Assembly (NCBI GenBank): GCA_963768055.1 | Contig: CAVYGN010000001.1 | Coordinates: 992,001 to 1,056,000, forward strand | Direction: 5' to 3' | Source: an uncultured Spirochaetota bacterium | Lineage (GTDB): Bacteria > Spirochaetota > Brevinematia > Brevinematales > JAOACQ01 | DNA length: 64,000 nucleotides | Shown here: piece by piece, positions 15,823 through 18,800 of the stretch | Numbering within the stretch: position 1 is the first letter of the stretch | Layout: each line of letters opens with the position of its first letter | Made by a program: the position numbers

Positions 15823-18800
15823 TGCTAAACTGATACACGATTTGGGAAAGGACAATAAAGAGCCATTTATAATCGTCAACTGCGCCACAGTCCCGCAGAA
15901 CTTGTGGGAATCTGAACTGTTCGGGCATGTAAAGGGAGCGTATACCGACGCAAAAAAAAACAGGACAGGGCGGGTGGAAGAAGCGGGGAAGGGAACGCTG
16001 TTCTTCGATGAGATAGGGGAAATACCGCTCGAGGTCCAGTCGAAGATGCTCAGGCTTCTCCAGGAGAAAGAGTACGGCCTGATAGGGAGCAACAAGGTAT
16101 ATACGTCAAATTGCAGATTCGTATTCGCTACGAACAGGAATATCGAGAAAATGATAAAGGAAGGCGCTTTCAGGGAAGACCTGTTTTACAGGATAAACGT
16201 ATTTACTATAAATATACCCCCCCTCAGGGAAAGAAAGGAAGACATCCCGATCCTGGTAGAGCATCTAATCGGGAAATTTCTGGCGGAATTCAATCTGCCC
16301 GGCGGAATACGGCTGGAGAAAATTGCGCTTGAAAGCATTATGAATTATAACTGGCCTGGTAATATAAGGGAAATGGAAAATATTATAATCAGGGCGCTTG
16401 CGGTGCTGGCGAGCTCGGAAGGAGATAAGAGTATATTAAAAAAATCTCATCTTCCGCTGGATATTGAAATGGGTCCGGAGATAAAAAGAATGCAAAATGA
16501 TCACGAAATAAAGCTGGAAGAAGAATTAGAAATAAACGGGAACTATGATGAGATCATTGACGAACAATCGAGAAAATTGATCCTGTGGGCGCTGTCCAGG
16601 GCGAAAGGGAATAAAACGAAGGCGGCCGAAATCCTGGGCATAAAGAGGAACTCCTTGAATTATAAAATGAAAGAACTTAATATAGGATTCAACATATAAA
16701 ATTATAATTTAGAAGAAACGAAAAGTCACTACCTCCCAATTTTCCCTTTAATGAAAAAAATGTTATAATTTATCTGAGTTGAAATATTTATATAAGTTTC
16801 CGGTACACTTTCCGTAACTTCTATATAAAATCATTTCATTAACTCATTCTATGTAATATAATTAAAGTAAATATTACATATAATTCAAAGTTAAACGGAG
16901 TTATTTAATATGTGTTATGCAATACCCGGAAAGGTGAAATCCGTCAAGGACAAATGGGCTTATGTGGATTATTTCGGCGAGGAAAAAAGGGCTTACAATG
17001 AATTCCATGATCTTGTTCCCGGCGATTATATCTATGCCCAGGCGGGTATTGTAATAGAAAAAATCGCTTCTAAGGAAGCGAGGGCAATATTAAAGACCTG
17101 GAAAGAACTGTTCTTCTCTTTGAGAAAAAAGGATGAAGAATTGCTGAAAGACAGTATCCAGGCGGTTTCAGTGAGGACATCCGTAAGAAAACTGCTTGAT
17201 GAGGCCCTGGAAGGCCGGAAACTAACCTCAGACGAACTTTTTTCACTGATAAAAGCCGGTGATGCCGGCGATCTGGCGGACATGTACAGTACGGCAAATC
17301 TCATGAGGGCGAAATTTCATAAAAATTCCTGCTGCGTCCATGGGATAATAGAAATATCGAACTATTGCGCCAGGAACTGCGCATATTGCGGCATATCGTC
17401 TGAAGTCAGGAACATTACCCGCTACAGGATGTCGGAACAGGAAATAATAGAGACGGCGCACACAGCGGTAAATAAATACGGTTTTAAAGCCCTTGTACTT
17501 CAAAGCGGAGAAGATTGTTCCTATTCGGTCGATGAACTGGCTGATATTATACGCATTATCAAGAAAAACGATAACGTTCTGGTTTTTATCAGTTTCGGAG
17601 AAATCGGCTCCATAGGGCTTTCGACGCTTTATAAAGCCGGAGCGAGGGGACTTCTCCTGAGGTTTGAAACGTCGAACCCTGAACTTTATTCCAGGCTTCA
17701 CCCGGGGCACTTGCTGGAAGACCGCCTGAACGACCTCAGGAACGCTTATGATATGGGTTATCTTATAATCACGGGTTCACTGATAGGCCTGCCGGGCCAG
17801 ACTGATATGGACCGCTTGAACGATATCCTTCTTGCCAGGGAACTTCACACTGAAATGTACAGTTTCGGCCCGTTCCTTCCCGCTCCAGGTACGATCCTTG
17901 AAAGGAGCAGAAAACCGGATACGGATATGGTTTTAAAAACAATAGCCGTAACCCGGATCGCGGATGCAGAGAACGCTAAAATACTTGTAACGACGGGTTT
18001 CGAAACGCTCTCGAAAGATGCGAGGCGCCGAGGCCTTATGTCCGGCGCGAATTCGGTTATGATCAACCTGACGCCCGCACTCTATAAAAAAGATTATGCA
18101 ATCTATCCTAACCGGGCTCACAGGGATGAGGATCTTGGACGTCAGATCGAAGACACGCTTTTCCTTCTCAAAAATTTAGGAAGGGCCCCGACTGATCTGG
18201 GGTATTAACATGAATCCGCCGATAATCTGTGTAAAAAATGTCAGCAAGAGCTATGGAGAGATCAGGGCTGTAAAAGATTTTTCATTCGATGTCGAAGAAG
18301 CCACATGTTTCGGCTTTTTAGGCCCTAACGGGGCCGGAAAAACAACAATGATGAAAATGATTTACGGTAAGGCTGAAAGAGACAAAAAGTCAAAAAGCGA
18401 AATAAGGGTTATGGGATTCGATCCCGCTAAAAAACCGCTTGAGATCAAGTCCATTTCCGGAGTCGTACCCCAGGAAGATAATCTTGACGAGGAATTGAGC
18501 GTATTCCAGAACCTTTATATCTATACGCGCTTTTACGCCATTCCCGCCGCTGAGTCAAGGAAAAGGATCGATTCTCTTCTGGATTTTATGGAACTTACAG
18601 ATAAAAAGAAGGCGATGATCCGTGAACTTTCCGGCGGGATGAAAAGACGCCTGATCATTGCCAGGGCTCTTCTGAATAATCCGAGGCTTCTTATTCTCGA
18701 CGAACCGACCACAGGCCTGGATCCGCAGGTAAGGCACCTTATCTGGGACAAGATAAGGAAATTAAAAAAAGAGGGAGTAACGATCCTGCTTACCACCCAT

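Follow-up and report, generated by a model that had tools for sequence, protein, structure and literature searches.

A HypC-HydE-like radical SAM fusion as a likely [NiFe] hydrogenase maturase in a Brevinematales genome without detectable HypD, HypE and full HypF

The window analysed here is a stretch of 64,000 nucleotides from one of the two contigs of an assembly of an uncultured Brevinematales bacterium (G000; 3.69 Mb, 94.75% complete). Its forward strand carries the gene that is the subject of this report, preceded by a plausible translation signal:

16910..18208 (stop codon included), + strand: HypC-HydE-like radical SAM fusion gene, 432 aa, starting MCYAIPG, from the ORF and its translation
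16897..16900, + strand: likely ribosome-binding site GGAG, 9 nt 5' of the ATG, from direct reading of the sequence

An AT-rich gap of 210 bp separates the upstream gene from the GGAG site, and an ABC gene begins 1 nt past the fusion stop codon, a scan around the gene having found no + strand terminator between the two. A promoter scan of the same surroundings returned 7 promoter-like sites, against 7.6 expected by chance. As a preliminary description of this DNA had reported, the gene lies beside a kinase-type regulator and an ABC transporter (of the ABC-2 type); the same neighbours are found across the genus, with no hydrogenase adjoining.

The 432-aa fusion of HypC and radical SAM domains announced in that description is borne out by Pfam, which places HupF_HypC at aa 1-64 (52.3 bits, cut-off 28.5, spanning profile positions 1-65 of 65), Radical_SAM at aa 147-305 and BATS at aa 323-401. 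Both domains are present in 119 of the 120 relatives listed, at 55-79% identity. Of the family models, TIGR00074 (HypC) gives 39.9 bits against a cut-off of 48, and the NCBIfam HydE model TIGR03956 gives 221.3 bits, below its cut-off of 254.6, with other members of the fusion family scoring about 210 to 289 bits and in some cases exceeding it. The best solved relative is HydE of T. maritima (structures 3CIX, 3IIZ, 7O1O and 8QMK), at 37% identity over aa 93-427, close to the 38% claimed earlier. An AlphaFold2 model of the fusion (mean pLDDT 92.7, pTM 0.92) has the HydE/BioB-type barrel and superposes on this enzyme in Foldseek with a target-normalised TM-score of 0.94-0.97 and an rmsd of 1.5-1.7 A; it differs from HydE in its added N-terminal HypC domain and, as predicted, a long linker helix. 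Within the gene, the following parts can be told apart:

16910..17101, + strand: HypC/HupF domain, aa 1-64 (Pfam PF01455)
17186..18190, + strand: HydE-fold radical SAM barrel, aa 93-427 (phmmer alignment to 7o1o_A, and Foldseek)
17330..17341, + strand: Cys141-Cys142-Val143-His144, part of the first strand of the barrel and, by alignment, a motif of the fusion family only
17366..17389, + strand: radical SAM cluster motif C153-x3-C157-x2-C160, invariant in 128 fusions and common to HydE

How far does each half resemble its namesake? The N-terminal domain shares with HypC/HybG/HupF, which are iron chaperones for [NiFe] hydrogenases (PF01455, TIGR00074; T. kodakarensis structures 2Z1C and 3VYR) the initial Met-Cys followed by a Pro-Gly motif, the full-length Pfam match and a predicted beta-barrel plus helix, although HypC is ordinarily a free protein of about 80 aa rather than part of an enzyme. 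In HypC the cysteine after the start methionine is an iron ligand, and a conserved histidine (His51 in E. coli, His45 in T. kodakarensis) is important. Met1 and Cys2 are invariant across the 128 fusion sequences with which we gauged conservation, whereas the position aligned with T. kodakarensis His45 is an invariant glutamine, Gln44 (IYAQAG versus VIVHTG in 2z1c).

In the barrel, we compared the 128 fusions with 20 free HydE proteins. C141, C142 and H144 are invariant in the fusions, whereas free HydE has V/I/L, Y/L/W/H and Arg (20 of 20) at these positions, H144 being aligned with Arg54 of T. maritima HydE. An Arg, a Thr and a second Arg, at least 90% conserved among the free HydE proteins, are replaced in the fusions by His144, Phe/Cys226 and Gly/Ala247, respectively. 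We take these HydE residues to be R54, T134 and R155, which presumably form the S3 product-exit site; a literature search for HydE site residues found nothing. The auxiliary-cluster cysteines of HydE are missing from the fusion as well (positions 404, 412 and 415). Met316 and Met384, on the other hand, align with Met224 and Met291 of HydE and are kept both in the fusions and in the 20 free HydE proteins; PMC10114646 attributes the handling of the Fe(CO)2CN species to this pair. The fusion thus retains the iron-handling methionines of HydE, and an invariant Cys-Cys-x-His takes the place of its putative product-exit residues.

G000 encodes two [NiFe] large subunits, RICGIC...DPCVSC and RVCGIC...DPCFSC, both with intact cysteine pairs and C-terminal extensions, in one group 3b-type operon and one membrane-bound group 4 operon with HycI as its last gene. 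HypA, a HypB-type GTPase and two HycI endopeptidases are present too, so that the earlier inventory of nickel-insertion and processing genes is recovered in full. Up to this point the gene set resembles the canonical HypA-F plus endopeptidase system of E. coli and T. kodakarensis. It departs from that system where the iron unit is concerned: profile searches of the genome yielded no HypD (best E 0.334), no HypE (best 50 bits, cut-off 251.6), no full HypF (128.4 bits, cut-off 466.1, positions 380-739 only) and no free HypC, the HupF_HypC search matching the fusion alone. The preliminary description had stated the same absences and had named the fusion N-terminus as the only HypC domain of the genome. 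On the reading proposed below, radical SAM enzymes would take over the synthesis of Fe(CN)2CO, a process whose execution by HypCDEF is called well conserved in an excerpt of PMC9431212. A HypF-C-like protein of 532 aa was considered as a further member of the route and rejected; its gene adjoins acetolactate synthase genes, and of the 50 fusion genomes described below just 7, all labelled Spirochaetota, have a similar protein.

The pattern extends through the order Brevinematales, where our counts for HypD, the large subunit and the fusion reproduce those given before. HypD is absent from all 35 genomes, 25 of which are at least 90% complete, while a [NiFe] large subunit is found in 15. A HypC domain occurs in 13, every match lying inside a frame of 433-444 aa that is the fusion. 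None of the 20 genomes that lack a large subunit has the fusion, against 13 of the 15 that have one, and the two large-subunit genomes from which it is missing are 57% and 73% complete. Restricting the count to the 25 genomes of 90% completeness or more leaves 12 with the large subunit and 12 with the fusion, the same 12 according to the per-genome rows. In other families of the order, the fusion gene even lies 0.6-0.8 kb past the end of a group 3b large-subunit match.

Beyond the order, the fusion is present in 318 species genomes from many phyla. We kept 80 loci from these 318 hits, calling the fusion ORF in 78, and searched 50 of the corresponding genomes for hydrogenase and maturation genes. 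The fusion almost never co-occurs with HypC/D/E/F: HypD and HypE are each found in 2 of 50, and HypF and free HypC are confined to the same two genomes, in a set of hand-picked metagenome bins of unstated completeness where each lone absence is weak. A [NiFe] large subunit, in contrast, is detected in 48 of the 50.

Systematic failure of detection could produce such a pattern when, in fact, ordinary HypD, HypE and HypF are there, missed through incomplete assembly or divergence, and the fusion is simply an extra HypC paralogue. Most of the genomes are metagenome bins, G000 itself is 94.75% complete, and the two exceptions do combine the fusion with a full Hyp set. Yet in those two, the genes for HypC, HypD, HypE and HypF cluster next to a classical large subunit of 556-570 aa, so that the search evidently sees these genes where they are present, and all 4 control genomes with a known HypD gave a match in the same searches. 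With HypD lacking from all 35 genomes of the order, 25 nearly complete ones included, from 48 of 50 fusion genomes, and from a two-contig assembly in which the best match has an E of 0.33, we regard this explanation as extremely improbable. HypD being the usual partner of HypC, its absence is also a difference between the fusion and an ordinary HypC.

If the fusion served some other metal centre or substrate, its link with [NiFe] operons would be regulatory or accidental, and the ABC-2 transporter and kinase-type regulator that flank the gene in G000 and the rest of its genus would fit this. The wider set of loci looks different. A large subunit with both cysteine motifs lies on the same strand, at most five genes upstream of the fusion, in 42 of 78 loci, and anywhere in the locus in 51 of 78; a HypA-cluster gene lies at most two genes upstream in 35 of 78. 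By Pfam, three unrelated kinds of [NiFe] operon (group 3b, Ech-type group 4 and Mrp/Mbh-type group 4) have the fusion as their last gene, directly behind hypA, which is a common arrangement; a position beside hypA is again a HypC-like trait. Together with the invariant Cys2 of the HypC domain, the large subunit in 48 of 50 fusion genomes and the 13-of-15 versus 0-of-20 split in the order, this makes a role unrelated to [NiFe] hydrogenases very unlikely.

A different reading starts from the radical SAM half: the fusion might be a HydE variant for the maturation of [FeFe] hydrogenases, its HypC-like domain merely helping to carry the iron synthon. HydE, an enzyme that is known from no process other than [FeFe] hydrogenase assembly, is indeed the nearest relative, solved or curated, and some family members pass the HydE cut-off. 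Moreover, G000 has two [FeFe] hydrogenases, HydF, and a HydG adjacent to a separate HydE; HydE, HydF and HydG had been listed in the preliminary description. HydG (C2:921960-923279) scores 502.3 bits on TIGR03955 against a cut-off of 312 and has the C-x2-C-x22-C motif. Because this genome holds the full HydE/F/G set, it cannot by itself separate a role in [NiFe] from one in [FeFe] maturation. [FeFe] hydrogenases are likewise found in 30 of the 50 fusion genomes, and many Omnitrophota loci carry an [FeFe] operon downstream of the fusion, only a few genes away.

Several observations argue against this reading, however. The [FeFe] hydrogenase is missing from 20 of the 50 fusion genomes, and 19 of the 50 have neither it nor HydF nor a free HydE. 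A separate true HydE is kept alongside the fusion in 29 of the genomes with an [FeFe] hydrogenase. HydE's invariant Thr, its two Arg and the auxiliary-cluster cysteines have been lost, and in [NiFe] operons the fusion comes after hypA. As a point against a [NiFe] role, the large subunit is itself not clear in 2 of the 19 genomes (none in G031, 21 bits only in G036). On balance, we give a function in [FeFe] maturation very little credence.

The 19 genomes without other [FeFe] components are instructive in another respect, in that all 19 keep HydG, at most 6 kb from the fusion in 15 and not close to it in 4. Across the whole set, HydG is above cut-off in 48 of 50 genomes, and where a radical SAM gene neighbours the fusion it is HydG in 39 of 42 cases. 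The two proteins may even be joined: 17 of 19 longer relatives unite HypC, HydE-like and HydG parts in one protein, and HydE-like plus HydG parts were seen in 7 of 8 longer relatives scanned. The long tblastn matches of L086-L088, L092 and L095 seemed to contain an inserted stretch of about 210 aa, a reading that was rejected because each match continues into the adjacent, homologous HydG gene. Mapping 'no [FeFe] hydrogenase' as a label onto a HydG tree takes 7-8 changes, which means that HydG was retained on many separate occasions; a single [NiFe]-specific HydG clade was rejected, sequences from genomes with and without [FeFe] hydrogenases being intermixed.

The fusion might nonetheless be a [NiFe] maturase that draws its ligands from elsewhere, its radical SAM domain converting some other substrate to CO and/or CN, with HydG being kept for a different task, for example a ThiH-like one in thiamine synthesis. 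HydG and ThiH are related and, according to the literature, have their first reaction in common, and on the ThiH model our HydG matches reach 236-321 bits as well. Such a scheme would agree with the distant HydG genes in 4 of the 19 [FeFe]-less genomes and would avoid a problem of stoichiometry: HydG's product is given in the literature as 2 CO and 1 CN, whereas the [NiFe] site requires Fe(CN)2CO, that is, 1 CO and 2 CN. With large subunits that carry the usual motifs, this ligand ratio is unexplained. Against this scheme stand the adjoining genes in the other 15 genomes, the 17 proteins in which HydG is joined to the fusion, the cysteine-rich C-terminal domain that the HydG copies keep and ThiH does not have, and the conservation in the fusion of the two methionines that HydE uses on the HydG product. 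We therefore hold a ligand source other than HydG to be fairly improbable.

We are thus left with a reading that we consider likely, namely that the fusion is a [NiFe] maturase that, together with HydG, replaces HypC, HypD, HypE and HypF in making and delivering the iron-carbonyl-cyanide unit. The preliminary description had already proposed that the fusion belongs to an alternative route to this unit, perhaps from the HydG synthon, and the [NiFe] operons, the overlap with Hyp proteins in only 2 of 50 genomes, the retention of HydG in 19 of 19 and the triple fusions support it on comparative and structural grounds.

How might the route work? HydG, as is typical of its family, would convert tyrosine to CO and CN at an iron bound by cysteine, the known product being complex-B. 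The HydE-like barrel of the fusion would bind complex-B, and a 5'-deoxyadenosyl radical would attack its cysteine sulfur as in HydE, a step suggested by the fold shared with HydE, the radical SAM motif and the conserved pair of methionines. Up to this attack the chemistry is probably the same as in the HydG-HydE-HydF pathway, with which the route also shares an above-cut-off HydG, in some relatives joined to the fusion. Thereafter the two would part: HydE sends its product through the exit site towards HydF, whereas, speculatively, the fusion would trap a single iron unit at the Cys-Cys-x-His and pass it on to Cys2 in the HypC domain of the same protein. The receiver would then be the HypC domain and the [NiFe] large subunit instead of HydF and HydA, and neither HydF nor an [FeFe] hydrogenase would be needed, consistent with the 19 genomes in which both are missing. 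Given the known role of HypC, the domain would dock on the large-subunit precursor and insert the iron unit, after which HypA and HypB would add nickel and HycI would cleave the C-terminal extension, genes for all of which are present. In G000, a single HydG would supply both the [FeFe] pathway and the fusion route.

A predicted complex between the group 3b large subunit and aa 1-90 of the fusion lends weak support to the docking step, with a score of 0.37 (best of three controls 0.00). Of the solved complexes, 116 of 157 attained that mark, as did 2 of 215 mismatched pairs; only 18 of the 157, plus both mismatches that passed, did so with scores at 0.60 or under. At least 57% of the contacts recur between runs, and partner pLDDT is at least 67.

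The distribution of the fusion suggests that many anaerobes assemble the [NiFe] site with no need of HypD, HypE and HypF, proteins held to be universal. Our literature search, with subscription journals and preprint supplements outside its reach, found no description of a HydG/HypC-HydE route to this site and only one passing mention. The bolder proposition, that HydG and HypC-HydE constitute a complete second pathway to the [NiFe] active site for group 3b and group 4 hydrogenases in many uncultured anaerobes among bacteria and DPANN archaea, we regard as doubtful. Since HydG delivers 2 CO and 1 CN, it would require either that the Cys-Cys-x-His site re-sorts ligands or that the hydrogenases carry a non-standard iron ligand set. 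Its consequences, if true, would be considerable. Tyrosine would be the source of both CO and CN ligands in such organisms, which would answer where strict anaerobes obtain the CO ligand, a long-standing question. Corrections would be due in genome surveys that take the lack of HypCDEF as the mark of a 'non-functional hydrogenase', and a smaller gene set would become available for the heterologous production of group 3b and group 4 hydrogenases. The route would explain working [NiFe] hydrogenases without hyp genes in hundreds of uncultured lineages, among them Omnitrophota, Saganbacteria/Margulisbacteria, Brevinematales, Scalindua and DPANN archaea. It would also link the [NiFe] and [FeFe] maturation systems, thought to be unrelated, and would mean that nature has solved the same cofactor problem twice.

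The gene at issue encodes, as the preliminary description had it, a 432-aa protein with a HypC N-terminus and a HydE-like radical SAM domain, and the ORF, Pfam and NCBIfam bear this out. Its position and that of its upstream neighbour are as follows.

11237-16699, + strand: 1820-aa kinase/sigma-54 regulator
16910-18208, + strand: fusion ORF, 432 codons, N-terminus MCYAIPG

The sequence reads GGAG 9 nt 5' of the fusion ATG, preceded by a 210-bp AT-rich gap. Pfam places HupF_HypC at aa 1-64 (52.3 bits, entire profile covered), Radical_SAM at aa 147-305 and BATS at aa 323-401. Among NCBIfam models HydE comes top, its 221.3 bits falling below the cut-off of 254.6, and the PylB, BioB and HmdB models score far lower still. 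Note that the gene does not sit beside a hydrogenase, also as first described: the upstream regulator combines Ser/Thr kinase, AAA_16, TPR, GAF, sigma-54 activator and HTH_8 domains in one chain, and downstream lie an ABC ATPase, an ABC-2 permease and DapF, the ABC gene starting 1 nt past the fusion stop.

The genome itself (3.69 Mb, 2 contigs, 94.75% complete) encodes two [NiFe] large subunits, one in a group 3b-type operon with Fe-S, FAD/NAD and small subunits, the other in a membrane-bound group 4 operon with Mrp-type subunits and HycI as the last gene; both keep RxCGxC and DPCxxC and carry C-terminal extensions. In the group 4 operon, the NuoH-like gene consists of two overlapping ORFs (L014:11144-12102, equivalent to G000:C1:813143-814101) that match Pfam NADHdh positions 8-127 and 124-296, which may reflect a frameshift, an error of sequencing or a gene that is truly split. 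A full-length HypA gene (114 aa) adjoins that of a HypB-type GTPase, and there is a second HycI. Profile searches of this genome found no HypD (best E 0.334), nothing above 50 bits for hypE (cut-off 251.6), no full hypF (128.4 bits versus 466.1, profile positions 380-739 only) and no HupF_HypC match outside the fusion. HydG (502 bits) adjoins a true HydE (337 bits), and the genome further encodes HydF and two [FeFe] hydrogenases. Nearly all figures of the preliminary description were recovered.

Across 35 Brevinematales genomes, 25 of them at least 90% complete, these earlier counts were reproduced: HypD occurs in none, the [NiFe] large subunit in 15 and a HypC domain in 13, each time within a 433-444 aa frame. 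All 13 fall among those 15, the remaining two being 57% and 73% complete; among the 25 more complete genomes, large subunit and fusion occur in one and the same set of 12. The start of the fusion in four other genera lies 0.6-0.8 kb past the end of a group 3b large-subunit match on a shared contig, so that the isolated position of the gene in the genus studied here looks secondary.

The family extends well beyond this order. Both domains are present in 119 of 120 listed relatives, with 55-79% identity across the full length (the last entry is the window gene itself, called at shorter length), and when species were scanned by one genome each, 318 genomes proved to encode a relative. The best 80 loci, retained for neighbourhood reading, are mostly from Omnitrophota, with others from Saganbacteria/WOR-1, Margulisiibacteriota, Brevinematales, Scalindua, Mcinerneyibacterium and Auribacterota and, among archaea, Aenigm-, Alti- and Micrarchaeota. 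ORFs were called and clustered, gene order was read, and Pfam was run on one or two members per recurrent cluster. By gene order and Pfam, hypA followed by the fusion closes three types of [NiFe] operon.

Operon types ending in hypA-fusion
Type 1: group 3b, with HycI
Type 2: Ech-type group 4, large subunit ending DPCISC(T/A)ER, without HycI
Type 3: Mrp/Mbh-type group 4, with HycI

ORF calling recovered the fusion at 78 of the 80 loci and missed it at 2. At least 42 of the 78 have a large subunit carrying both Cys motifs on the same strand and no more than five genes ahead of the fusion (at least 38 of the 61 with 3 kb or more upstream), at least 51 have one anywhere in the locus, and at least 35 have a HypA-cluster gene no more than two genes upstream; these are lower bounds because genes were lost to contig ends and to crude ORF picking. 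Downstream there is often Rex, then HydG or an [FeFe] hydrogenase operon, and at Ech-type loci often a CbiM/NikM-like transporter. This metal-uptake gene directly follows the fusion at L076:11359-12093, with the same cluster at loci L064, L067, L072 and L075, but lies upstream in L052; its presence beside the fusion fits a role in nickel supply. Ech-type large subunits ending DPCISC(T/A)ER, without C-terminal extension, occur at L052, L064, L067, L071, L072, L075-L081, L083 and L085, and the gene order of these loci (with Pfam on L071 only) has no endopeptidase slot. At L071:6983-7903, an Ech-type group 4 small subunit carries a fused GNAT acetyltransferase domain. Short HypA proteins of 80-81 aa (L020:9647-9889 and L023:9741-9986) match profile positions 1-70 only and hence miss the zinc-finger part.

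What accompanies the fusion was counted in 50 genomes, namely all 36 loci not labelled Omnitrophota and 14 Omnitrophota on long contigs.

Proteins found in 50 fusion genomes (completeness not given)
[NiFe] large subunit: 48/50
HydG: 48/50
[FeFe] hydrogenase: 30/50
Free true HydE: 29/50
HydF: 28/50
HypD: 2/50
HypE: 2/50, same two as HypD
HypF: same two only (G028, both halves; G025, C-terminal piece)
Free HypC: same two; also a 62-aa frame with a stop in G030

In G025 and G028, HypC, HypD, HypE and HypF share a contig with a classical large subunit of 556-570 aa (660-707 bits), which means that the two routes exist side by side in these genomes or that the bins are mixed. A further protein of the window's genome carries only a HypF_C_2 domain; frames resembling it occur in only 7 of the 50 genomes, all labelled Spirochaetota.

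L015:5297-6895 (G000:C2:741296-742894): HypF_C_2 (Kae1-like)-only protein, 532 aa, beside acetolactate synthase genes

[FeFe] hydrogenase, HydF and free HydE are all missing in 19 of the 50. HydG is nonetheless present in all 19, at most 6 kb from the fusion in 15, and 17 have a clear [NiFe] large subunit. Near the fusion we counted 47 radical SAM ORFs, 42 of which were scanned (the other five are four below 150 aa and one of 151 aa): 39 are HydG above the cut-off, two true HydE and one ThiH. On a HydG tree of 47 of 49 rows (two below 420 aa dropped; cut copies of G010 and G031 not included), the label "no [FeFe] hydrogenase" requires 8 changes, of which well-supported branches force at least 7, and there is therefore no special HydG clade. 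On many separate occasions the same HydG stayed with the fusion in lineages that had lost the [FeFe] system or never acquired it. One genome, G040, has two HydG copies, one by HydF and HydE, the other directly by the fusion and large subunit. Among longer relatives, 17 of 19 comprise HypC and two radical SAM parts; seven of eight scanned are HydE-like, then HydG above the cut-off, and the eighth is HydE plus HydG without a HypC domain. Public proteins P0124-P0140 (805-946 aa; Omnitrophota, Nitrospirae and others) unite HypC, HydE-like and HydG parts in a single chain. The usual C-terminal C-x2-C-x22-C pattern is failed by 20 of 49 HydG rows (stretches between L135 and L156), one of them cut short and the other 19 forming one clade; six that were inspected, all about 470 aa, have C-x5-C-x5-C and a later Cys, and such copies occur in both HydE/HydF and fusion contexts.

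In an AlphaFold2 model built on 128 sequences (mean pLDDT 92.7, pTM 0.92), aa 7-52 form a small beta-barrel and aa 54-85 a long helix; the model also has an eight-stranded barrel. Its first Foldseek match is T. maritima HydE (target-normalised TM-score 0.94-0.97, rmsd 1.5-1.7 A), with PylB and BioB well behind. Comparing 128 fusions with 20 free HydE from the same genome set, both groups share CX3CX2C and keep two methionines, fusion Met316 and Met384, which align with HydE Met224 and Met291. By contrast, Arg, Thr and Arg, found in at least 90% of the free HydE (the first in 20/20) and which we take to be HydE R54, T134 and R155, as fits the alignment, give way to His144, Phe/Cys226 and Gly/Ala247, adjoining a new invariant Cys141-Cys142. 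The auxiliary-cluster C-x7-C-x2-C is likewise replaced by His/Tyr404, Gln412 and Glu/Asp415. Within the HypC domain, invariant positions include Cys2 and, in place of the conserved histidine, Gln44. According to the review PMC10114646, HydE Met224 and Met291 handle an Fe(CO)2CN species. Judging from the residues kept and changed, the barrel therefore looks HydE-like at its top and rebuilt at its product end.

A predicted complex of the group 3b large subunit with fusion aa 1-90 scores 0.37 (best of 3 controls, 0.00), with contacts agreeing to at least 57% between runs and partner pLDDT of at least 67. In the benchmark, 116 of 157 solved complexes attain this mark, as do 2 of 215 mismatches; at scores up to 0.60 only 18 of the 157 do so, along with both mismatches that passed. 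The prediction thus lends weak support. The main gap concerns ligands: PMC10114646 gives the HydG product as 2 CO and 1 CN, PMC9431212 the [NiFe] site as 1 CO and 2 CN. The large subunits retain the usual conserved motifs. We found no account of such a route in the searchable literature.

The suggestion that the fusion belongs to an alternative route for the Fe-CO-CN unit agrees with distribution, operons and HydG retention. Behind it stand gene content, gene order, co-occurrence, fold and residue patterns, while every chemical step is one that we infer. The simplest account of the [NiFe] site is that HydG would provide a cysteine-bound Fe-CO-CN unit, which the fusion would release through HydE-type radical chemistry; the HypC domain of the fusion itself would bring a single iron unit to the large subunit, and HypA/HypB and HycI would complete maturation.
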